Shown here: one piece after another, positions 36 through 11,400 of the stretch
How positions within the stretch are numbered: position 1 is the stretch's first letter
Layout: each line of letters opens with the position of its first letter
Origin: Nitrospirales bacterium
GTDB lineage: Bacteria > Nitrospirota > Nitrospiria > Nitrospirales > UBA8639
Direction: 5' to 3'
DNA length: 64,000 nucleotides
NCBI GenBank assembly: GCA_965223295.1
Contig: CBDCWC010000002.1
Location: forward strand, 1,312,001-1,376,000
The notes under the pieces: generated by a model
Told to the model about the DNA's origin: nothing
The model's input: the letters and a program-made list of their open reading frames with translations, nothing else
Database searches by the model: none
Translations under genes and position numbers: made by a program

Positions 36-1445
36 CTAAGACAATTCATGCGAGTCAGGCTGAGAAAAACGGGGAGCAATATCGGCTGGTTTATCTGACG
101 GATGAAGACCATATTTTTTGAGGAGTTTATAAAAATCTGCACGGTAGCGTCCAGCAATTTGTGAAGCACGAGAGATATTCCCTTGCGTGGCTCGCAAAAG
201 ACCTCTGAGATATTCTCGCTCAAACGCCTCTTTAGCTTCCGTTAGTGGCTGCAAACTCCCAGGCTGTGTTGTCTCCTGTTGTGAAAGTGGTAAAAATTCT
301 TCCGTAATGGTTTCATGAGATGACATCACAACTGCTCGCTCAATCATATTTTCTAGTTCCCGGACATTTCCCGGCCACGCATAGGTCAGCAAACGTTGCA
401 TGGCTTCAGGAGAAACCCTTTTCACCATCTTGTCATGATGTTCCGCATGACGTTTCAGAAAAAATTGCGCCAGAGAAGGAATGTCATCCCTGCGCTCTCG
501 CAAAGGCGGAAGATGAAGAGGTACCACATGAATACGATAGTAGAGATCTTCACGGAAGCGTCCCTCTCGAACCGCAATTTCAAGATCTTTGTTAGTTGCA
601 GCTAAAATCCTCACATCGATCTTGACCGGGACCTGCCCTCCAACTGGAAGAATTTCGCGATTTTGAATGGCACGCAGCAATTTACCTTGAAGAGCCAAAG
701 GCATTTCGCCAATTTCATCTAAAAAAAGCGTCCCTTTATCTGCACTATGAATTAAGCCTCGTTTGTTTTGATGTGCCCCGGTAAATGAACCTTTCAGATG
801 TCCAAATAACTCACTTTCAAATAGGGTTTCTGGAATCGCCGCACAATTAACCGCCATAAACGGTTTCGACGCTCGAGGGCTATTACAATGAATCACTCGG
901 GCGATGACTTCTTTTCCCGTTCCAGTTTCACCCGAAATACAAATTGTTGTATCGGTCTTCGCAACACGTGCAACTTGTTGAAGAACAGCATGCATCTGCG
1001 GGCTACGGGCCACTACATTATCCAGCCCATATAGTTCATTCACCAATAACTGAAGGCGATGGATTTCCTCACCCATTCGCTTTGTAATTAAGGCCTTATC
1101 AATACTCTCCCGCAATTCTTTGTCATCGAACGGCTTCGTTAAATAACCATAGGCCCCTTTTTTCATGGCTTGCACCGCATTAGGGATACATCCATGTGCG
1201 GTCAAAATCAAGACAGGCAGATTGGTCTGATGTTGATGCAATTCTTCCATTAAATCTAGCCCATCAGCATCGGGTAAACGAAGATCAAGGATCGCAAAAT
1301 CATACGGATCTTCCTGCGCACAATTCAGTGCCTCTTCACCATTCCCACACGTTGTCACGGCAAAACCCATGGACCGCAGGCGCATTTTCAGTAGGGTTAA
1401 TAAACTTGGGTCGTCATCAACGACAAGAATTCGTTCATCTGACAT
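36..1445 (-). CDS. glrR: Sigma-54-dependent response regulator (REC-AAA+-Fis HTH), GlrR/QseF-like
   Basis: REC domain (ILVVDDD, DLRLP), Walker A GETGTGKE, GSFTGA loop, Walker B LFLDEIG, WPGNVRELEN; C-terminal GNISRASQIAGRYRADFYKLL resembles the GlrR HTH. The symbol is less certain than the family call. Confidence 0.85.
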   Translation of the reverse strand: MSDERILVVDDDPSLLTLLKMRLRSMGFAVTTCGNGEEALNCAQEDPYDFAILDLRLPDADGLDLMEELHQHQTNLPVLILTAHGCIPNAVQAMKKGAYGYLTKPFDDKELRESIDKALITKRMGEEIHRLQLLVNELYGLDNVVARSPQMHAVLQQVARVAKTDTTICISGETGTGKEVIARVIHCNSPRASKPFMAVNCAAIPETLFESELFGHLKGSFTGAHQNKRGLIHSADKGTLFLDEIGEMPLALQGKLLRAIQNREILPVGGQVPVKIDVRILAATNKDLEIAVREGRFREDLYYRIHVVPLHLPPLRERRDDIPSLAQFFLKRHAEHHDKMVKRVSPEAMQRLLTYAWPGNVRELENMIERAVVMSSHETITEEFLPLSQQETTQPGSLQPLTEAKEAFEREYLRGLLRATQGNISRASQIAGRYRADFYKLLKKYGLHPSDKPADIAPRFSQPDSHELS

Positions 1446-1455
1446 GTTAGCTCCT

Positions 1456-2277
1456 TTAGGGTTGGCTGGCTTGAGGAACAGCCTCCTGATTTTCTAATGG
1501 ATTTTCAACTTCCGGACTTGGTGTCATATTTTCTGAAGGACGCGTCGGAGGAACCTTTTCTCGAATCTCTTGATCAATCCGACGCAAGGCTTCCAGTTGC
1601 TGCATTAATTCTTTTACCTTTGCCTCACTGAGCTTCAGTTCTTGTTGAACGTCCTGAACAAAAGCTTGGTCTTTTTTGGCTTGCTCAAGCTGGTTCGTGA
1701 GGGTCGTGATGGCTTGCTTTTGTCTTATAACGACTTCGTCCTGGGCAGCCAACTCATTCCTCAGCCCCTCATCCTCAGGGATATCCTCCAACTGCCTCAT
1801 CAGCTCATGGATCGACAATTCTTTACTGACCATTTCGCGCGTCATTCGCCGCATCAGTTCATAAGATGTAAGACCAGCATTGTTAGGGGAATTCAACACC
1901 TCTAAAAACCATAACCAAAAACGACTTTCCGTTGCGAACAAACTATTGGGAGCCGAGGTGACAACTTTTCGAAAATGTAAAGCGGCTAATTCACGATTTT
2001 CATATAATGCTGCCACCCCACGAAGAAAATGAGTACGCTGACAAGCCTGTTCATCGTTGCAGAGTCCCAATTGTTTTTCCTGATCTTCCGCAATGGCTTT
2101 AAAGTAGGGCACGTCTTCTAACTCCGGCTCCAGGACGTCGGCAAGATTACTTTCAGAAACCGTATACGGTTCGACTGGTTGCTCAACATGCACATCAGGC
2201 CCGGTACATGAAATCAGCAATACGATTCCGAAAATAACTGAAAGCGCTTGCCATGCTTCATTGGGAGAGTCCGTCAT
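1456..2277 (-). CDS. Putative lipoprotein with coiled-coil C-terminus, in the QseG/YfhG position
   Basis: Likely start ATG 2277 (ORF track extends to 2370, overlapping the kinase); hydrophobic stretch ending in lipobox-like LLISC; Q/E/L-rich helical tail; lies between kinase and regulator. Confidence 0.65.
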   Translation of the reverse strand: MTDSPNEAWQALSVIFGIVLLISCTGPDVHVEQPVEPYTVSESNLADVLEPELEDVPYFKAIAEDQEKQLGLCNDEQACQRTHFLRGVAALYENRELAALHFRKVVTSAPNSLFATESRFWLWFLEVLNSPNNAGLTSYELMRRMTREMVSKELSIHELMRQLEDIPEDEGLRNELAAQDEVVIRQKQAITTLTNQLEQAKKDQAFVQDVQQELKLSEAKVKELMQQLEALRRIDQEIREKVPPTRPSENMTPSPEVENPLENQEAVPQASQP

Positions 2278-2288
2278 AAACTGCCAGG

Positions 2289-3773
2289 TCAGTGCACGGT
2301 TTTCACCGAGGCGCGCGGGGAAACAATAAAATGTACCGCGGTGCCTTTGCCATTTACACTTTCTGCCCAAATAGTGCCGCTATGATCTTCGATCACGCGC
2401 TTAGCTAGGGCTAAGCCAATTCCACTTCCAACATGGACACGCCCTTCCTGGGCTTTTCCTTGATAAAATCGTTCGAAAATATGTGGCAAATCTTCTTCTG
2501 GAATACCCGGCCCTGAATCTTCAACCATAAAGTGTATTCCCGTACTGACAGAATCCGCTTTCGAACGTATGGCAATCGTCGCACCATGAGGGCTAAATTT
2601 AATGGCATTAGACAACAGATTTTCAAAGACTTGTTCCATCCTTTGACTATCCACTTCTTGGATTTTTACCTTGCCTGGGACTAAATCGATGGTCATGTGA
2701 ATATTTTTTCGATCAGCTAACAGTTTGACTTTTTCGGTCGATCGCACCGCCAAACGATTTAAATCAGTGGGATGAAAATTATAGGAAACCATATCCGCTT
2801 CCATCCTCGAGAGATCCAACAAATTGCCAATCAACTGATTCAATCGTTGACTACTATCCGAAATGATTGAGAGGGTTTCTCGTTGATCTTTGGTCAATTC
2901 TCCTGGAACCCCATCAAGCAACAACTGTGAACCTTCTCGAATTGAAGTAAGTGGCGTTCGTAATTCATGTGAAATATTCGCCAGAAATTCGGATTTCATT
3001 TCATCCAACTTTTGCAGTTTTCTGCCCATCGAATTGACCTGTTCAACCAAATCCCGCAGTTCCTGAGGCACCGCGAGCGATATCGTTCCTCCAAATTGCC
3101 CTTGTCCTATTCGACGAATCTGTGCTTTAACCCGCCGCAATGGACGAAGGATACTATAGCTGGCAATGCCGGCCAAGCCAAGGCCCAAGACCAGAGCCAT
3201 CATCAGCAATTGTTGGGTAATGGCTTGGGCTTCAACCGAGCGCAGATGGGAATCCCGAAGAATCGCTCCGACACTCGCCTCCTGAGACGTAATATAGGCA
3301 TTGATGGTCTGAGTCATCGCTTCAAGAAGCGTATCGCGTTTTTGCTCATAGCTGACAATGTCAAATGGAGTCCTATCCGCCTGTTCAACCCCAACACTGA
3401 GAAACAGGGTATGAAATTCTTCATGATGGGCCTTGACAATTTGAAGGGCCTCGCGAGTCGTGCCCTCATTTTCTTGATCTTCGAGCGCCTTTAACGTCTT
3501 TCTAAAATTTTCAGCCTCTTGCAAAAAATCCTTCAGAAGAGTGGTGTCTCGTAAGACGAGATATTGCTTATCACTCTTTAATTGGGCATACAGGCTCGTG
3601 ATCAACTGCTTGGCAGTTTCCACGGCTGGAAAATGGTGAGTGGCAAGTTCAGCATTCAAATTGGTTAACGCACGAAACTGATTCAGAATATACAAATTCA
3701 GCCCTATCACCAGGGCAAGAATTGTCACATACCCCAACGCCAACCGCCAAAAAATTGAAAGCCTAGAAAACAT
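2289..3773 (-). CDS. glrK: Membrane HAMP sensor histidine kinase, GlrK/QseE-like
   Basis: Two TM segments, HAMP, H-box SHELRTPL, N-box NLLSNAIKFS, DSGPGI, GSGIGL; same operon as the GlrR-like regulator. Confidence 0.85.
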   Translation of the reverse strand: MFSRLSIFWRLALGYVTILALVIGLNLYILNQFRALTNLNAELATHHFPAVETAKQLITSLYAQLKSDKQYLVLRDTTLLKDFLQEAENFRKTLKALEDQENEGTTREALQIVKAHHEEFHTLFLSVGVEQADRTPFDIVSYEQKRDTLLEAMTQTINAYITSQEASVGAILRDSHLRSVEAQAITQQLLMMALVLGLGLAGIASYSILRPLRRVKAQIRRIGQGQFGGTISLAVPQELRDLVEQVNSMGRKLQKLDEMKSEFLANISHELRTPLTSIREGSQLLLDGVPGELTKDQRETLSIISDSSQRLNQLIGNLLDLSRMEADMVSYNFHPTDLNRLAVRSTEKVKLLADRKNIHMTIDLVPGKVKIQEVDSQRMEQVFENLLSNAIKFSPHGATIAIRSKADSVSTGIHFMVEDSGPGIPEEDLPHIFERFYQGKAQEGRVHVGSGIGLALAKRVIEDHSGTIWAESVNGKGTAVHFIVSPRASVKTVH

Positions 3774-3978
3774 ACCTAGGCAAAAACAATGAAATTAATA
3801 ACATGCATGTGGAGGAAAATTCCTTCGGGCTCAACTATGGGATCTTACTGATCAAATTCATCACGTTTCAGCGAAAAGCTCTTTCAAATCAGTGAAGTAA
3901 TAAGTAAGAGTGGCATACCCTATCATGGACTTCACATATAGAAAACCCCTTGACGGTTAAGGTATTCAGACATTTTTT

Positions 3979-3995
3979 TTGGCACATGCATTGCT
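3979..3995 (+). promoter_or_regulatory. Sigma-54 (-24/-12) promoter
   Basis: TTGGCACATGCATTGCT matches TGGCAC-N5-TTGC exactly; intergenic and divergent from a sigma-54 activator operon. Confidence 0.75.
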
Positions 3996-4394
3996 TAAGG
4001 AATAAAAGTTCTTCATTAACTTGATAATTTTAAATAGTACCTATTTCGGATCTAGCTTCTTTATCTCCCCCGCGTAATGAATTGGCCACATTTATTTTTT
4101 GCCTGTAACTTCGACCTGCATTACTACATCGGTAATCTGCAAGGCTTCGCGTTAAGGGCCCGAGCATGTTTAAACGCGTCATCTTCGATATCCATCACAT
4201 CATTCACTATATCGCCAAACAAACAATTGCAAAATCCCCTGCAAACCTAACTGAGTGTAATTAAATTTCTTAGTCGGAGCAGTAAAATCCTCAGCACTTC
4301 CATAAAGAACGACCTCGTCTATCCATGCGTCTACAAAATTTTCTTTTGCAAGCTTCTGAAGCCAACCCCCCTCAACCGTAATGTGGAGCACGAC

Positions 4395-5576
4395 ATGAAT
4401 TGTTTCCCTCTTTTCCGTAAGTTTCTCCAGGTATTACCGAGTACCATCATCGTCCCCCTATTGTTTCTTTTGAGCTGTTGTATAATGATTTCGACTCTTC
4501 ATGCAGCCAGTGTCTCACTGACATGGAATGCTAACACAGAGTCAGACCTGGCCGGATATAAAATTTACTTACGTACACTTCCTTCCACCGATTATGGTTC
4601 AGCGGTTTTTTCTGGGTTACCTTCAAATCCCTCTTCTCCTCAAAAAACCATCACAAATCTTGCTGAAGGTCGTTCATATGGAGCAATTGTCACAGCTTAC
4701 GATAATGCAGGAAACGAAAGCGGACCTTCAAATGAAGGGCAATTTACAACTTCCTCTTCTTCGACCACCTTTCCCTTAACGATCAAAAAAGAAGGGAATG
4801 GCAGTGGAACCATTACAAGTAATCCTGTAGGCATTAGCTGCGGAAGTACTTGTTCGACTCGTTTTCCAGAAAATAGCTCTATTACCCTTACCGCGGTAGC
4901 TGGGTCTGGTTCGGCCTTTACCGGCTGGAGTGGAGGAGGCTGCAGTGGCTCCAACACTTCTTGCACCATCACCCTCCCCTTGGGCAAAACAGTCACGGCC
5001 ACATTCGAGCAGTCACAAACATCTACCTCCACTTCCCCCTTAACGGTAAAGTTTGAGGGGACTGGTTCCGGAAGGGTCAGCAGCAGTCCTAGCGGCCTCA
5101 GCTGTACGAGTAACTGCTCAGTTCGTTTTCCAACAAATAGTTCGATTACCCTTTCCGCGGCAGCGGGTACCGGTTCGGTCTTTGCCGGCTGGAGTGGAGG
5201 AGGCTGCAGCGGGACGAATACTTCTTGTACCGTTTATCTCAACTTCGGCAAAACGGTTCGAGCTAGCTTTCAGTCCTCACAAACGTCGGGAACCCCTAGT
5301 ATAGTCACGCCCACACCGGGGACCTCGATTTCGGGCGGGAGCACGACCTTTACCTGGCAACCCAACGGAACTGCTGTGACTGAATGGTGGCTGTATGTGG
5401 GAACCAGTCTAGGCGCTAAAGACATCTTAACCAGTGGCTCAATTCCCAGTGGCACCCTCTCGCGTACCGTATCAGGTCTCCCCACCAATGGGAGCTCGGT
5501 CTGGGTTAAGCTCTGGTGGCGTACGGCTTCGACGGACTGGCAAAACACCGATTTCCAATATTCCACCAGAAGATGA
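4395..5576 (+). CDS. Secreted modular protein: FN3 (lacking first strand) + 2 InlB-B-like repeats + Trp-rich Ig-like module
   Basis: ATG 4395 after GGAG; signal peptide ending LHA-A; VSLTWNANTESDLAGYKIY...TAYDNAGNES; two GxGSGxxxSxPxGxSC...FxGWSGGGCSG repeats; C-terminal FTWQPNxTAVTEWWLYVG module. Confidence 0.85.
   Translation: MNCFPLFRKFLQVLPSTIIVPLLFLLSCCIMISTLHAASVSLTWNANTESDLAGYKIYLRTLPSTDYGSAVFSGLPSNPSSPQKTITNLAEGRSYGAIVTAYDNAGNESGPSNEGQFTTSSSSTTFPLTIKKEGNGSGTITSNPVGISCGSTCSTRFPENSSITLTAVAGSGSAFTGWSGGGCSGSNTSCTITLPLGKTVTATFEQSQTSTSTSPLTVKFEGTGSGRVSSSPSGLSCTSNCSVRFPTNSSITLSAAAGTGSVFAGWSGGGCSGTNTSCTVYLNFGKTVRASFQSSQTSGTPSIVTPTPGTSISGGSTTFTWQPNGTAVTEWWLYVGTSLGAKDILTSGSIPSGTLSRTVSGLPTNGSSVWVKLWWRTASTDWQNTDFQYSTRR
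4770..5271 (+). repeat. Tandem pair of about 80-aa InlB-B-like (divergent) repeats within the CDS
   Basis: Shared DNA CCGGCTGGAGTGGAGGAGGCTGCAG near 4921 and 5185; conserved Cys pairs. Confidence 0.8.
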
Positions 5577-6176
5577 GGGCATAACTACTAACCTTAACTG
5601 AAAACCTATTACTCTTTTCGACCTAGCAGACCATCGGCACAGTCACGGAAAAAAGAGTTGCCTTTAACCATTTGTCTTTCTTCACGGATGAGGAGATGAA
5701 CAGAAGATCTTTTAGGGCTACCCAAAGAAGTAATCCCCGGTAAATGCTGAAAAAAAACTTGTTCCGTACTACCCCTCCTCAATCGCTACCATTTCGAAGT
5801 AAAAAACGTTTAACGAGACTGAAGATAGTTAAAAAGAGGTATATATGGCATGATCCATTTGCATGCCTCCTTAGGGGTGCGTTTTGGGTCTTTTCCCTTT
5901 GCCTCCACAGTGAAATTGTTCCTAAAACATATCCATTGCACGTTCTTTTCTTTAAACTGTTCAAATCATTAAGGTTCAATCCGGGCTTCAACCAACGCGA
6001 CAATGAACATCAACAAACCAAGGCTTTAGGAAGATGTTATTTGCGTCTTGTTTTATTTTTAGATACATGAGTAAATAAAATCGTTACTGAGAATTTCTTC
6101 GTTTTTTTTTAATAAATAGCCTATCATTTCAACTTTTATAAAATTCAACTTGGGGCAGTATGGAGGATGACGAGTC

Positions 6177-9100
6177 ATGAAATATAAATTATTGATGGTG
6201 GTAACTTTTCTTTTTGGCCTGAATCCCAATCTAAGCTTAGGAACAGAACTCGGAGATCTTGCCACCTCTATGGCAGTCGGAACATGGACAAAACTCAATA
6301 CAAACGGATTCACGAAAAACTATCTTCTCTATCCCAATGGACCAAACACTCACCCAACGACCAATTTTTTAGGCGAAGTCTCCTGGGATCCCGTGACCAA
6401 AAAAGTTTTCTTTTTAGGTGCAGGACATTTTAATTATTCCCAGTTGCATGTGTATTCCGAATCTACAAATACATGGACACGCGGCCCAGAGCCGCCAGGT
6501 GCGCCAATTCAACTGGGCCATGGCTATAGCCACAACGCTCTATCCGTAGGTGACCGAGTATTGGGGTTTCTTCATTCTAATCCTAATAAACTGACTTTCT
6601 ACCAGTACAATATCGGTGCTAACACATGGACACAACGCTCCTCCACATCAAATGACGGAGGCATCGCTCATGCAATGACCTATTTTCCGGATCGCTCAAA
6701 ATGGTATGTGGCTGATGGGACGTTTGGGCGAATATTGGAGTATGACCATATCTCCAATTCTTGGGGTACCGTTGAGACCGAACCAGACTGTTTTGGAACA
6801 GAGTCAGGAGGATATTATCACCAATTTGGTTCATACAATGCCGTCCGAAAGGAGATGGTCTTTGGAGGTGGTAATGTTTATTCTGGGAACAATAAATTCT
6901 CCAAATCCTGGTGCAAAATGGATAAGGACGGCGATATTACCCTTATGCCTGAGGCTCCCCATACACTCCGAATCCCCGAGGGCACAACCAGCACGAAGGG
7001 AGCATTAGTTTCAATTGATCCAGCCAGCGGAGATCTGTTGGTACTGACCCAGATTGGAACTTTTTTTGCGTTTAACTTTTCAACAAATGAATGGACAGCC
7101 ATTCAAGATCAAGCAACCAGACCAAACGTCTTTAAGCAGACAAGTAATAATGTCACCAATGGCTTTGTCGTTCCCATTAGCACGTATGGCGTCACGATGT
7201 ATGCGGATCATAATAATAATCCTACCCTTTGGCTCTATAAACATGCACAGGGAGGCACAGTCGTCACACCACCGGCTGCTGACACGACTCCGCCATCAGT
7301 ACCTACAGGTCTGTCAGGATCCGCGACCTCCTCATCGACAGCAAGTATGAATTGGAATGCATCAAACGATAATGTAGGGGTTGCAGGGTATCAGGTACTG
7401 AGGAACAACAATAGCGTTGCCACGCCATCAGGGACCTCATTCAATGATACCGGCCTTGTGCCGGATACAACCTATTCCTACAGTGTGAAGGCATTTGATT
7501 CCGCTGGAAACTTTTCCGCTGCGTCGTCATCAATCAGTATCACCACACCAAGCGAATCAACGGGAGGAGGATCGGGGGGATCCGGGGGCTCTAGTGGATC
7601 CGGAGGCTCTGGGGGGCAAAGTTCCAATACGGCATCAAACGTTCTTGTCATTCACGACACATCGGGAGACAGTCAAAGCAACAGACCTATCTCCCTTGCG
7701 AGGCCATTTCGGAAAGGTGATATTTCCAATTTTGCACAGGCAGTGATCAATGGCACACCGGTACTCACACAGAATGACGTCAAGAACCGTTGGCCAGATG
7801 GGTCATTGAAATTCGCGATCGTCAGTTTTGTGATTCCAAATCTTTCGTCAAACGGATCCGTTGAAGTGAAACTGGTCAATCAAAACTCAGGTCACAACAC
7901 CGGGTTTTTGAGTAAGTCAGATATGCTGAACTCAAACTATAACTTCGACGGGACCATTCGTATGGCTGGTGCAGCAACTAAATCCATCAGCGCCCGGCAG
8001 ATACTTGAAAACGGCCACTTCCGATATTGGCTAAAAGGGCCTATCGTGACGGCTGTTATTCTTGAAGACCGTACGCCGACAAGAACCTATGACCAGGATT
8101 TTGGAGATGGCAGCAAAGCTCTGCACCCCATATTTGAGGCCTGGTTCTACCCGCAAGGGAAAAAGGTACAGCTGGGCTATACGGTCGAAAATGTGTGGTC
8201 CAGCTCGACCGCCTCCAAAAGTATGAGGGATCTCCGTTACTCGCTCACGCTGACATCGGGACATTCTTCCCAAAAAACTGAATTTACCCATGCCTCCTTT
8301 AAGCATATTGCGCGAAGCCGTTGGCACAGGTTGTATTGGCTTGGGACTGATCCTGGAGGAGTTCGTATCGATCACAATCTTGCTTATCTGGTGACAACAG
8401 CAGCCATACCTCACTACGATACATCAATAAACGTGTCACCATCATTGGAAGGGAATTTGTACAACGAGTACGGAAAGTATGATGGAACATTCGATGGATC
8501 AGATGGAGGCAACACCAACAAACTTGGCCTATACAAGAAATCCTTGAATTCTACGGGAGCCAGCTATTGGATCGGGTTACAAGCAACATGGGAGACAACC
8601 TGGTTGTATTCCATGAGTACGAGAGGCTGGGAAATGGTACTTGGGAACGCAGACCTCGGGAGCCGAATGCCTATATTTTATCGGGAAGCTGACGAGCTAG
8701 CAGGATCGGGTGATTATTTTGATCAACGTTATACACAAAATGCGAAGTTAGCATCTGCTGGACAGAAGCAGGGCACTGGAACAGTGAATACCTTTGGACG
8801 TCCAATTTCTGTGAACGCCCGCCGCTTTGTTGACTTAGGATCACCCCACTCTTCCAGCCAATCCGCTGCTGATAAAATTAAGACCGGAACCATTTCAACT
8901 GACGGATGGAATCAAACAGACAGCAGTCATCATACAGACATCTGCTACACAGCCTACCTGTTTTCGGGCCGTTATTACTATTTGGACTGCTTACAAATGG
9001 AAGCCGCCTTTCGAGTAGGATGGAAAACTCCCGGATTTAATAGCCCATTCGGCCGTCCGGGAGAAGTGGGGCTGTTTAATGGATCCAACGTCCGACATGA

Positions 9101-10010
9101 TGCGTGGTCCTGGAAGAACGTGATGTACGCCGCATTTATCTCACCAGACGGGCAACCTGAGCAAGCCTATTTCCTCCAATCTTTGAAAGACAATATTAGT
9201 GAATGGGAAGGGCTGCTCAATTTACCTGCCACCTATACCAACCGGCCCGAGGTGTGGAACTATGGTCGACAAACCCGCTCCTCTAACTGCAACCTCATAG
9301 GTAATTGCATACAAGGGAATTTTGGACCATCCCCATTTGGGGAATTCACCGTGGGCGGAACACCTTTTATTGATAATGCGTATATGGACGGAAATTTGGT
9401 GAACTCGGGCATCTCGCCATTTGAACTAAATTTTCTCATTGCAGGCTTGGCAATGGGACGGAATATGGGGATCGTGAAGCCTGATACGCTTTTAAAGTAT
9501 TTTGCAATCATGCGATTCAACCTCACGTTAAACCCTGAAGCTTATGTAGGGTCCCCATCAGAGGGGATTCCACTTGGGCCTTATGCCATGGAGGTGTATA
9601 AATTTCCCACCATTGTGAAAGCCTCGAATGCATGGCCATCTTCCTGGAACCAGTTGGCCTCACTGTTCCAGACTAATCCGGATGCCAATGGAGGGCAAGC
9701 GAGAACACATTCACCCGTTTTTGGCTGGCGTGGCGAAAACGGACGAGCGGGCTTATCGCCTGATCATAGCTATCGCTTGATCGCCAGAGCCTCACTTGCA
9801 GCCTTATACCCTTATACCGTTGATGGCTATACTGGGCAGCAAGCATGGAACTATTTCTTGTCGGTTGCCCCCGACGATACCAATGACTTAGAAACACGTA
9901 GTCCAAAATGGGCAATTACCCCAATGAATGTGAGTGGAAATAGCGGCGGTAGTTCTGGCACCCCTGACACAACCCCCCCCAGCCCACCGAGGAATTTAGT
10001 TGTTCAATAG
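6177..10010 (+). CDS. Large secreted protein: kelch-like propeller + FN3 + Gly/Ser linker + WPDGS (PcRGLX/PL26-like) putative polysaccharide lyase domain + C-terminal PPSPPRNLVVQ tail
   Basis: RBS GGAGG; signal peptide; repeated YxxxxNxW blades; chitinase-type FN3 DTTPPSVPTGL...DNVGVAGY...KAFDSAGN; NRWPDGSLKFA motif. The lyase function is inferred. Confidence 0.75.
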   Translation: MKYKLLMVVTFLFGLNPNLSLGTELGDLATSMAVGTWTKLNTNGFTKNYLLYPNGPNTHPTTNFLGEVSWDPVTKKVFFLGAGHFNYSQLHVYSESTNTWTRGPEPPGAPIQLGHGYSHNALSVGDRVLGFLHSNPNKLTFYQYNIGANTWTQRSSTSNDGGIAHAMTYFPDRSKWYVADGTFGRILEYDHISNSWGTVETEPDCFGTESGGYYHQFGSYNAVRKEMVFGGGNVYSGNNKFSKSWCKMDKDGDITLMPEAPHTLRIPEGTTSTKGALVSIDPASGDLLVLTQIGTFFAFNFSTNEWTAIQDQATRPNVFKQTSNNVTNGFVVPISTYGVTMYADHNNNPTLWLYKHAQGGTVVTPPAADTTPPSVPTGLSGSATSSSTASMNWNASNDNVGVAGYQVLRNNNSVATPSGTSFNDTGLVPDTTYSYSVKAFDSAGNFSAASSSISITTPSESTGGGSGGSGGSSGSGGSGGQSSNTASNVLVIHDTSGDSQSNRPISLARPFRKGDISNFAQAVINGTPVLTQNDVKNRWPDGSLKFAIVSFVIPNLSSNGSVEVKLVNQNSGHNTGFLSKSDMLNSNYNFDGTIRMAGAATKSISARQILENGHFRYWLKGPIVTAVILEDRTPTRTYDQDFGDGSKALHPIFEAWFYPQGKKVQLGYTVENVWSSSTASKSMRDLRYSLTLTSGHSSQKTEFTHASFKHIARSRWHRLYWLGTDPGGVRIDHNLAYLVTTAAIPHYDTSINVSPSLEGNLYNEYGKYDGTFDGSDGGNTNKLGLYKKSLNSTGASYWIGLQATWETTWLYSMSTRGWEMVLGNADLGSRMPIFYREADELAGSGDYFDQRYTQNAKLASAGQKQGTGTVNTFGRPISVNARRFVDLGSPHSSSQSAADKIKTGTISTDGWNQTDSSHHTDICYTAYLFSGRYYYLDCLQMEAAFRVGWKTPGFNSPFGRPGEVGLFNGSNVRHDAWSWKNVMYAAFISPDGQPEQAYFLQSLKDNISEWEGLLNLPATYTNRPEVWNYGRQTRSSNCNLIGNCIQGNFGPSPFGEFTVGGTPFIDNAYMDGNLVNSGISPFELNFLIAGLAMGRNMGIVKPDTLLKYFAIMRFNLTLNPEAYVGSPSEGIPLGPYAMEVYKFPTIVKASNAWPSSWNQLASLFQTNPDANGGQARTHSPVFGWRGENGRAGLSPDHSYRLIARASLAALYPYTVDGYTGQQAWNYFLSVAPDDTNDLETRSPKWAITPMNVSGNSGGSSGTPDTTPPSPPRNLVVQ

Positions 10011-10123
10011 TTCTCAGTAAAACACAGTCATCAAAGCGGAGCTGCCCTGACCATTTCGGTTTCAGAAAAACCTGCTTCCCACTGATGAACTATTGACTCC
10101 ACACAATTTTCCAGTAAATATTG

Positions 10124-10164
10124 AGCCAGAGGGTTCTTCTTAGCCGTTGAGCCCTCGGCTTTTT
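10124..10164 (+). terminator. Probable intrinsic terminator
   Basis: Imperfect hairpin AGCCAGAGGGTTC...GAGCCCTCGGCT followed by TTTT, downstream of the 6177-10010 CDS. Confidence 0.55.
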
Positions 10165-10419
10165 GCCGATACCTAAATCACATTAACCCTGATTGAATGT
10201 CTGGCAGAGATATTATTTTTGTCTGATACCCTATTTTGTGAGGCGTATATAAAAGGGATAGCAAGGGGCAGATCCTATTTTTATTTCAAATCATCAACTC
10301 CTTAAGCACACTAGCTGACCACACTTTGACATCCGCCTGAAGATGAAAAGTCACATTCTCACATAACGCTCCTTACGATACCGTCCTATGTACGAATATT
10401 TCCTACCTAAAAAAAATCA

Positions 10420-11400
10420 ATGGTGACTTGTACCGATAACAAACCGCTTATTCTACTCTGTGGAATGCCTCGCTCAGGAACAACGTGGCTTGGAAAACTT
10501 TTTGATAGTGATCCTAACACTCTCTACCGACATGAACCCGATAGCATAGAGCGTCTCGCGTGGCTTCCTCTGTATATCGAACCCGAATTTGATGGACGGT
10601 CAGACCAAATTCAAGAATATATTCAATACCTTCCCAATATTTGCTCACCAAAAGTTTCTGCCTCAATGCCCGTATTCAGTAAGTCCTATATGGGACCTGT
10701 CAAGCAAACGCTGATACATCAGACATTTCGGCTCGTCAAAGTCCTCTCGTTATTTGGCATCAACCACGTCCCCCGTTACTGCGTCCCCAAAGACCATTCT
10801 TCCTATCAATTAGTATGGAAAAGCATCGAATCCGCTGGACGACTCGGGTATTTTGCCGAAGTGCTACAAAACAAACGGCTTATTTTTTTACTCAGACATC
10901 CATGTGCGATTACCAACTCTATTATTCGAGGAGGACGAAAGCAGTTCAAGGACTATGATGTCGCAGAAGATTGGGATATTTTTCAGGCCTTATTAGAATC
11001 AAAAGCAGGCAAAAGATGGGGATTTTCACTTGATGATATTCAAGACATGCGTCCTATAGAACGTATGGGTTGGAAATTTCTGGTCACAATGGAGAAGGCC
11101 GTGAAGGACTTGGAAGGCCGGAAAGACTGTAAGGTTGTTGTTTATGAAGATTTATGTGAGAATCCTGCAAAAATCATGAAAGAATTGTTTGATTTTTGTA
11201 AAATTCCTTTCGGGGAACAAACAAGTGAATTCCTCAATAGCAGTACCTCAAAAACTGATCCACAATACTATAGCGTCACCAAATTACCACTAGAAAGTGC
11301 ATACAAATGGAAAAGTGAGTTACCCCAACATGATCAACAACTCTTACTTAAATTGCTAGATCGTTCTCTGCTTGCTCAGTTCTGGACATCCCCCACCTAG
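10420..11400 (+). CDS. Sulfotransferase (PAPS-dependent)
   Basis: 5'-PSB motif GMPRSGTTWLG, HEPD, 3'-PB-like LLRHPCAITNS, YEDLCENP. Confidence 0.88.
   Translation: MVTCTDNKPLILLCGMPRSGTTWLGKLFDSDPNTLYRHEPDSIERLAWLPLYIEPEFDGRSDQIQEYIQYLPNICSPKVSASMPVFSKSYMGPVKQTLIHQTFRLVKVLSLFGINHVPRYCVPKDHSSYQLVWKSIESAGRLGYFAEVLQNKRLIFLLRHPCAITNSIIRGGRKQFKDYDVAEDWDIFQALLESKAGKRWGFSLDDIQDMRPIERMGWKFLVTMEKAVKDLEGRKDCKVVVYEDLCENPAKIMKELFDFCKIPFGEQTSEFLNSSTSKTDPQYYSVTKLPLESAYKWKSELPQHDQQLLLKLLDRSLLAQFWTSPT

Follow-up and report, generated by a model that had tools for sequence, protein, structure and literature searches.

The two genes and their products

Two adjacent genes for secreted proteins lie near the start of a 64,000 nt stretch of the genome of a Nitrospirales bacterium (GenBank assembly GCA_965223295.1, contig CBDCWC010000002.1, positions 1,312,001 to 1,376,000, forward strand; hereafter, the window), and between them they appear to divide the parts of a fibronectin type III (FN3) domain. 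The downstream protein ends in a peptide that resembles the opening strand (strand A) of an FN3 domain, and the upstream protein begins with an FN3 domain that lacks this strand. A first-pass annotation of the window had proposed that the two form a docking pair, the C-terminal tail of the one protein (the donor) completing the FN3 domain of the other (the acceptor).

Both open reading frames (ORFs) are on the plus strand, at 4383-5576 (397 amino acids (aa), P0001) and 6177-10010 (1277 aa, P0002). The first ORF opens with GTG at 4383, but the ATG at 4395 is probably the true start of the acceptor gene (4395-5576), since the homologues P0123 and P0125 begin with MNCFPLF. A signal peptide (MNCFPLF...ISTLHA, 4395-4505) is predicted by eye, with the same layout in 30 aligned homologues, and cleavage would fall just before ASVSLTW. 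The mature protein would then start directly with the FN3 domain (Pfam fn3, 4506-4757), a member of the xLTWNANTESDLAGY subfamily that begins at strand B and is the proposed acceptor. The remainder (4758-5576) consists of two Flg_new_2 (InlB B-repeat-like; PF18998, two stretches) domains and a C-terminal beta domain of about 90 aa, here called WWLYVG, which has no named family (Atlas returned unnamed clusters only) and recurs in the acceptors L070 and L072. The Flg_new_2 and WWLYVG parts are probable binding or scaffold modules.

The donor gene (6177-10010) encodes an N-terminal signal peptide followed by a weak Kelch-like beta-propeller region (6243-7280; Pfam Kelch_4, Kelch_1 and Kelch_6, all under cut-off, with PF24681 and PF13415 in homologues) and a complete internal FN3 domain with its own strand A, DTTPPSVPTGLSGS (7281-7553), recognized by Pfam fn3 and by the strand-A matrix described below. 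A Gly/Ser linker joins this domain to about 770 residues without a Pfam family, of which 7614-9923 are the catalytic region, a beta-sandwich and an alpha/alpha toroid as judged by AlphaFold and by a fold match to polysaccharide lyase family 26 (PL26). A variable Gly/Ser/Pro linker of low conservation, MNVSGNSGGSSGTP (9924-9965), leads to the strand-A tail DTTPPSPPRNLVVQ (9966-10007, residues 1264-1277), the proposed donor strand, and to the stop codon at 10008-10010. The 600-bp gap between the two genes holds a 108-aa ORF (5744-6070, plus strand) without a Pfam family, which is probably not a gene. A scan of 3700-10500 for promoters and terminators gave counts at or under the shuffled expectation.

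A probable detached FN3 strand A

The positions on which the first-pass annotation was built are all exact: the tail lies at 9966, the internal strand (residue 369) at 7281 and ASVSLTW (residue 42 of the 4383 frame) at 4506. The FN3 domain of P0001 does start at strand B, the Pfam fn3 match (residues 39-118) opening at position 11 of the 84 in the profile. The domain passes PF00041 with 29.1 bits against a cut-off of 25 (profile positions 11-80), and does not make up the seven strands of the fold, as the N-terminal strand A (PxxPxxL) is not present and nothing of the predicted mature protein precedes the domain. The internal domain of P0002, by comparison, spans residues 375-449 and profile positions 2-77. 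It is also correct that no FN3 continues past the stop of P0002 in any frame: when the whole genome was scanned with PF00041 in six frames, five matches came up, none of them downstream of that stop.

A strand-A matrix was derived from 431 unique cis strand-A segments in tandem FN3 arrays of unrelated metagenomic proteins belonging to the acceptor's own subfamily. The tail scores 24.6 bits with this matrix and the internal strand at residue 369 scores 28.6 bits, with 2.7 bits at the next best position in P0002, so the reported likeness of tail and internal strand holds. The best score in P0001 is -10.0 bits, from which it follows that this protein has no strand A anywhere, again as first annotated. 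Among 4850 ORFs of at least 100 aa in the genome, the matrix picks out four C-termini with 18.3-24.9 bits, where 0.02 would be expected at that level, and the next best reaches 9.7; a looser regular expression finds five C-terminal matches in the genome against 0.58 expected. The observation of a split FN3 domain is correct and far above chance. The stop codon of P0002 is not a sequencing error, because P0003, which comes from another assembly and is 97% identical over residues 480-1277, ends in the same way. Truncation by an insertion element was considered and rejected, as nothing resembling such an element lies 3' of the stop and distant homologues end alike.

Fold of the enzyme and state of its tail

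An AlphaFold model of P0002 residues 480-1277 (34 sequences) has a predicted local distance difference test score (pLDDT) of 82.8 and a predicted template modelling score of 0.89, and shows a beta-sandwich followed by an alpha/alpha toroid. The best structural match over both domains is the PL26 exo-rhamnogalacturonan lyase 5xq3_B (Z 10.5, 518 aligned residues, root-mean-square deviation 4.5, 9% identity); for GH88, GH105 and other (alpha/alpha)6 enzymes the similarity is confined to the toroid (Z 7-8.8). Foldseek matches to PL26 are weak (E about 1e-4, template modelling score 0.33), and a PDB sequence search with a profile of the catalytic domain gave no matches at E<=1. Judging from these matches, P0002 can at most be called a polysaccharide-acting enzyme that may be a lyase; the label of polysaccharide lyase that it received at first draws slight support from the PL26 fold match.

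The last 25 residues of P0002 are modelled at a pLDDT of about 30 and are not packed on their own protein in this monomer model. Packing of the tail into its own protein had been named at the outset as an outcome that would speak against docking, and where it was looked for, in the model of residues 480-1277, the tail is free. This bears directly on the explanation that the tail folds back in cis, on the catalytic beta-sandwich or on the internal FN3, to which we give hardly any credence. The internal FN3 already has its strand A, and the same tail occurs on the unrelated folds of polysaccharide lyase family 1 (PL1), M11 peptidases and small Cys proteins (see later); what can be said for cis folding is that small proteins bearing both halves of the split domain (see later) could close on themselves.

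Conservation of the tail in the enzyme family

Of 7994 candidates scored in a search with residues 480-1277 of P0002, 263 proteins reached E<=1e-3, and the best 120 of these were examined. Together with P0002, 21 of these 121 proteins carry the tail according to the regular expression; P0029, P0088, P0112 and P0116 are tail-like by eye and are counted as tail-less in these counts and in the tree described below. The stop codon lies 3-4 residues past the conserved Leu in 18 of the 21 tails. An alignment was made of 23 tail-bearing homologues, 37-59% identical overall except for one near-copy (98%), and in it the residues P1268 (23/23), L1274 (21/23), P1271 (19/23), P1267 (18/23) and D1264 (17/23) are retained. 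The mean share of the most frequent residue is 0.58 in the tail, 0.62 in the catalytic domain and 0.27 in the linker. By this comparison the tail appears to be under selection, and about as conserved as the catalytic domain.

These values have to be set against the view that the tail is a neutral relic, left when a C-terminal FN3 was lost through a stop just after strand A and the stub was tolerated. Such a stub would be expected to drift, yet the tail has kept pace with the catalytic domain where the linker has not, it persists at the low overall identities just given, and its end point is fixed within 1-2 residues in two unrelated families. In favour of a relic, the tail label requires at least seven changes on a tree of 120 catalytic domains (FastTree, tail columns excluded), a number that fits a portable module and equally fits repeated truncation, and one M11 orthologue has complete FN3 domains in place of the tail (see later). 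Taking both sides together, we regard a neutral relic as very improbable. A different ending was seen in acidobacterial homologues of the enzyme (L017, L018, L031, L129, L132, L133, L136, L138, L139, L141, L142 and L144), which terminate in an invariant, Pro-rich SPKWDITPR(A/Q)T(N/S)P(P/I/T)PAP-stop that is distinct from the FN3 tail.

The tail on other secreted proteins

Five proteins of this genome (G000) carry the tail, all of them with signal peptides by eye. Apart from P0002, the strand-A tail stands at the C-terminus of a PL1 pectate lyase (L069; contig C3, 272217-273650), an M11 peptidase (contig C3, 558567-560402) and two paralogous small Cys proteins (contig C2, 748510-748851 and 631779-632126). 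ORFs of 260 aa for transposases with matching N- and C-terminal stretches (contig C2, 749407-750189, and contig C3, 268718-269500) sit a few kb from the small Cys and PL1 donor genes.

The PL1 donor matches the NCBIfam model PelZ with 176 bits, under the equivalog cut-off of 840, and the names given to its homologues at source include 'polysaccharide lyase family 1 protein' and 'pectate lyase'. Of the 120 best homologues, 25-28 have the tail by regular expression and about 30 by eye, including a probably false one in P0334; in 25 of 25 tails found by regular expression, the stop lies 2-6 residues past the Leu. The source names of tail-bearing members include Nitrospira, Chloroflexi and a Hodarchaeota MAG (metagenome-assembled genome). 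Members without the tail have, at the same position, a dockerin (PF00404; P0245 and P0337), a membrane anchor (P0256) or nothing, and in P0271, P0277, P0282 and P0288 the tail position is taken by a C-terminal domain of the type IX secretion system (T9SS). Eight further homologues (P0274, P0286, P0297, P0304, P0305, P0310, P0338 and P0343) have in place of the FN3 tail a recurrent hydrophobic ending, ...(F/Y)LP(I/V)(I/V)x(K/R/Q/H), which may be another sorting tag of PL1 lyases.

Orthologues in related genomes retain the tail on the M11 peptidase (G003) and on the small protein (G003 and G004). The M11 orthologue of G004 has two complete FN3 domains where the proteins of G000 and G003 end after strand A, and this is the second point in favour of a relic. 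A full FN3 after the strand in orthologues, which the first-pass annotation had associated with simple truncation, is thus found for the M11 peptidase family and was not seen for the 1277-aa enzyme. The G004 orthologue (contig C15, 371551-375171; L160/L162-L166) is a 1393-aa frame whose C-terminal FN3 pair is preceded by a tandem array of five domains, nearly identical and each about 113 aa long.

Conserved, portable and placed in PL1 lyases where other members have sorting or anchoring modules, the tail could also be a functional tag for some other partner, acting in sorting, secretion or processing or binding another receptor by edge-strand addition, with the N-terminal FN3 complete enough alone. 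We judge this unlikely. Neither a transmembrane helix nor a basic cluster nor any known sorting motif occurs in the tail, which ends three residues past the Leu without a hydrophobic segment. NCBIfam sorting-domain models (PEP-CTERM, LPXTG, T9SS C-terminal domain and similar) have no match in five tail proteins (P0002, L069, L073, L074 and P0214). Its sequence fits the strand-A profile of the acceptor's subfamily and is cut in register with the acceptor N-termini, there are fusions that replace tail and acceptor FN3 by a direct link (see later for both), and no conserved additional receptor-like gene was seen by eye in five syntenic loci. PEP-CTERM-like endings do occur in other proteins, at contig C2, 630824-631543, of this genome (VPEPSTLGLF...RRRKKL) and at L009, 6775-7485 (VPEPGTILLL...RQKRR), and because of them an exosortase system is probably present in both genomes.

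FN3 domains that begin at strand B

This genome encodes five FN3 domains, four of which begin at strand B straight after a signal peptide. These acceptors are P0001 and proteins of 1031 aa (Big_7, LamG-like and PKD), 239 aa (Flg_new_2) and 511 aa (four WWLYVG domains). The acceptors of related genomes bear galactose-binding-like, LamG-like and Flg_new_2 modules. A common C-terminal end, ...(T/M)LLNY(I/V)xIxP, is shared by the related-genome acceptors L075, L078, L083, L085, L086, P0419 and P0436 and by the product of L001, 12947-15103.

An exhaustive HMMER search found 6089 relatives of the acceptor FN3 at E<=1e-3. Internal copies in giant tandem arrays carry a cis strand A with the consensus DTTPPAAPTGL, and the first Pro is 20 residues before the strand-B Trp in 310 of 444 copies. 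On this numbering the tails span cis positions -3 to 10/11, and mature acceptors mostly start 3-10 residues before the B-strand motif, which itself begins two residues before the Trp. Tail and acceptor are thus cut in register, the piece left out being the A-B turn.

Among 251 proteins, a cis strand A was detected in 475 of 627 internal copies vs 2 of 59 copies next to a signal peptide, although the sample was seeded by a query of the latter kind and close kin inflate the 57/59 figure. The absence of strand A seen in the acceptor is the rule for copies that follow a signal peptide (57 of 59), including those of proteins without an evident tail partner, and on this point the docking reading needs to be changed.

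Co-occurrence of the two halves, fusions and two-ended proteins

The surroundings of the enzyme gene were compared across 68 genome and 68 metagenome loci with an enzyme homologue. Six of the 68 genome loci have a tail-bearing enzyme, and in four of these (L001, L003, L004 and L008) it is immediately preceded, in the same orientation, by one or two acceptor genes. No acceptor gene adjoins the enzyme gene in the 56 closed genome loci or the 60 closed metagenome loci that lack the tail. The only tail among the metagenome loci (1/68) is that of L093, whose contig is cut on the 5' side; FN3-like matches to the looser regular expression in L096, L134, L146 and L149 were spurious by eye and were discarded.

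At the level of whole genomes, all 14 FN3 matches in five other tail-bearing genomes are next to a signal peptide and without strand A (2-4 per genome, including the genomes of L006 and L009). Five tail-less genomes have two FN3 matches, both internal, and no signal-peptide-proximal copy without strand A. Counts of the kind proposed in the first-pass annotation thus show five donors and four acceptors in this genome and both halves together in other tail-bearing genomes. The same numbers do away with the idea of a private donor-acceptor pair, as five donors and four acceptors amount to a many-to-many arrangement.

The window and four syntenic loci share the order sigma-54 regulator and kinase, acceptor(s), enzyme and exopolysaccharide genes. 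In the window, the region upstream of the acceptor (36-3773, minus strand) encodes a sigma-54 response regulator (36-1445), a 304-aa ORF and a HAMP histidine kinase (2289-3773), a trio that also precedes the pair in L003, L004 and L008. Downstream of the enzyme is an exopolysaccharide-type cluster (10420-40950) with genes for a sulfotransferase, several methyltransferases, an epimerase, a GDSL esterase, a Wzy/O-antigen-ligase-like protein and GT4 and GT2 glycosyltransferases, together with a DegT aminotransferase, a pyridoxal phosphate (PLP) decarboxylase, an AMP-ligase, a GNAT protein, a polysaccharide deacetylase and an asparagine synthase.

Two homologues of the enzyme, P0008 and P0011, have the catalytic domain fused straight to Flg_new_2 and WWLYVG, the modules of P0001, and carry neither tail nor FN3. 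Both nest inside the tail clade of the catalytic-domain tree, and the fused P0011 (L002) and a split version (L003) are found in one MAG. A further arrangement is seen in P0148, P0214, P0218 and P0192, small proteins that consist of a signal peptide, an FN3 without strand A, a middle domain and a tail, a layout that may mark self-complementing or polymerising subunits. Some relatives of these two-ended proteins (P0141, P0154, P0180 and P0189) have, after the strand-A motif, a mini-domain of about 45 residues with two Cys (...DC..V.TS..G.....RTV.CVK).

A model of docking by strand donation

It is observed that both halves exist, that the tail is conserved with a strand-A profile, that the halves co-occur and that fused forms exist; that they bind each other, and the geometry of their pairing, we infer from sequence. 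In the model that we propose, the last 14 residues of P0002 would be the strand A of an FN3, detached and carried by a flexible linker, and P0001 and three other secreted proteins would start, after cleavage, with an FN3 consisting of strands B-G only. After export, the tail would be laid against strand B of the FN3 lacking strand A, completing the sandwich by donor-strand complementation without a chaperone. The catalytic protein would thereby be tied non-covalently to binding or scaffold modules (Flg_new_2, LamG-like, galactose-binding-like and Ig-like). We consider it fairly probable that FN3 domains without strand A are completed in trans by such tails, free of chaperones and many-to-many, with the tail serving as a dockerin-like tag. 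Of the docking reading as first put forward, the selection on the tail, its strand-A profile, the co-occurrence of the halves, the fusions and the unpacked state of the tail all speak for it, and what has to be given up are the private pair and the notion that an FN3 without strand A is peculiar to it.

Several observations weigh against this model. As to proximity, no acceptor lies within 10 kb in the tail-bearing loci L006 and L009. Nor is one within reach of the four remaining donors in this genome, a point that also speaks for a tag for another partner. The pairs that are adjacent all belong to one conserved Nitrospirales locus, so that their adjacency amounts to about one evolutionary event and is not independent evidence. 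All tail-bearing genomes in the comparison are Nitrospirales and all tail-less ones are from other phyla. The M11 tail seemingly derives from another FN3 subfamily (YxVYRNG type), and its fit to the acceptors is assumed. To these may be added the seven or more changes of the tail label on the tree, given above.

On the acceptor side, beyond the inflation of the 57/59 figure, 152 of 627 internal copies have no strand A detectable by regular expression. The giant arrays P0349 and P0350 have a first copy without strand A, yet possess a T9SS-like end and no tail, and in Nitrospira proteins internal FN3 copies that follow BACON domains lack strand A. Copies such as these, without evident tails, also count towards a tag for another partner, and the absence of strand A may merely be tolerated. 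Lastly, an AlphaFold model of P0214 as a single chain (nine sequences, signal peptide included) has a mean pLDDT of 67.8 with the tail below 50, disordered and undocked.

Relation to known docking systems

Strand donation is well known from pili and fibres, in which an Ig-like sandwich that lacks a strand is reported to be completed by a strand of another chain (PMC13278184, PMC9715654, PMC10104325, 10.1101/2024.12.30.630787, PMC10628683). The systems compared were the chaperone-usher Pap, Fim and Caf1, the archaic CupE, the chaperone-free archaeal threads and cannulae, and the Pam pili of the candidate phyla radiation (CPR). The threads and cannulae show that such completion can do without a helper, and the two-ended proteins P0148, P0214, P0218 and P0192 share the layout of fibre subunits. 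Those systems are built of polymerising pilins, in which usually a C-terminal G strand is filled by an N-terminal extension or linker strand, whereas here the tail at the C-terminus would supply strand A of an N-terminal FN3, and the enzymes that bear it differ in fold. A Pfam scan of 27 ORFs of the window found neither a chaperone nor an usher family, and none was noticed in the four syntenic loci, which were read by eye.

The distribution of the tail is reminiscent of cohesin-dockerin systems, with a short C-terminal module on diverse secreted enzymes, a receptor on scaffold or binding proteins, a many-to-many relation and, in PL1 lyases, the very position occupied by PF00404 in other members. 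A dockerin folds into a duplicated loop-helix of about 70 residues that binds calcium, and it docks on the face of a complete cohesin; the tail differs from it as an unfolded strand of 14 residues that would complete an incomplete domain. PF00404 was not found in P0002 or in the PL1 donor L069. Two further cases share the principle that a short peptide is, or adds, a strand of an Ig-like or other beta domain and so gives specific docking. SpyTag/SpyCatcher is an engineered, man-made split of CnaB2 that is locked by an isopeptide bond, and PDZ domains are complete cytoplasmic folds that bind C-terminal peptides.

A further parallel is provided by PilC/PilY1 adhesins, the C-terminal tails of which are reported to join a minor-pilin complex by beta-strand addition (PMC13711793, PMC13533445, 10.64898/2026.02.14.705861). 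There, too, a conserved peptide at the extreme C-terminus of a large protein adds a strand to the sheet of a partner; that partner is a single, dedicated complex of type IV minor pilins, unlike the FN3 domains and the portable tag on many enzymes considered here. A search of the literature turned up no account of docking by a tag made of an FN3 strand A, though subscription journals and PMC articles outside the search could hold one. The proposed system would work like the donor-strand complementation of pili and be used like cohesin-dockerin, and would be a member of neither, having no chaperone or usher, no dockerin and no known sorting signal.

Implications

The split may extend beyond this family. 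One could imagine a general, chaperone-free code outside the cell, in several phyla, by which any exported protein ending in strand A plugs into any FN3 starting at strand B; this is a tentative proposal, and we would put only modest trust in it. Under such a code, two-ended proteins of the P0214 type would polymerise head to tail as fibres or form rings, tail-only enzymes would be caps or cargo, and changeable extracellular enzyme assemblies would be made from one split domain. Evolution would switch freely between split and fused forms, as P0008, P0011 and the M11 orthologue may illustrate.

The docking model itself, if correct, would mean that the commonest domain of extracellular proteins has yielded a natural pair of tag and catcher, and would account for thousands of so far unexplained FN3 starts that look 'truncated', and of orphan peptides at C-termini, in environmental genomes. 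It would change the annotation of such genes, the pair being one functional unit, and would offer protein engineering a small, genetically encoded docking tag. A plausible purpose is that matrix-acting enzymes are held on a polysaccharide- or surface-binding partner, which would suit the position of the pair beside the exopolysaccharide cluster. The docking model would then show how uncultured bacteria such as Nitrospirales can keep enzymes that act on polysaccharides attached to binding proteins in the absence of a cellulosome.

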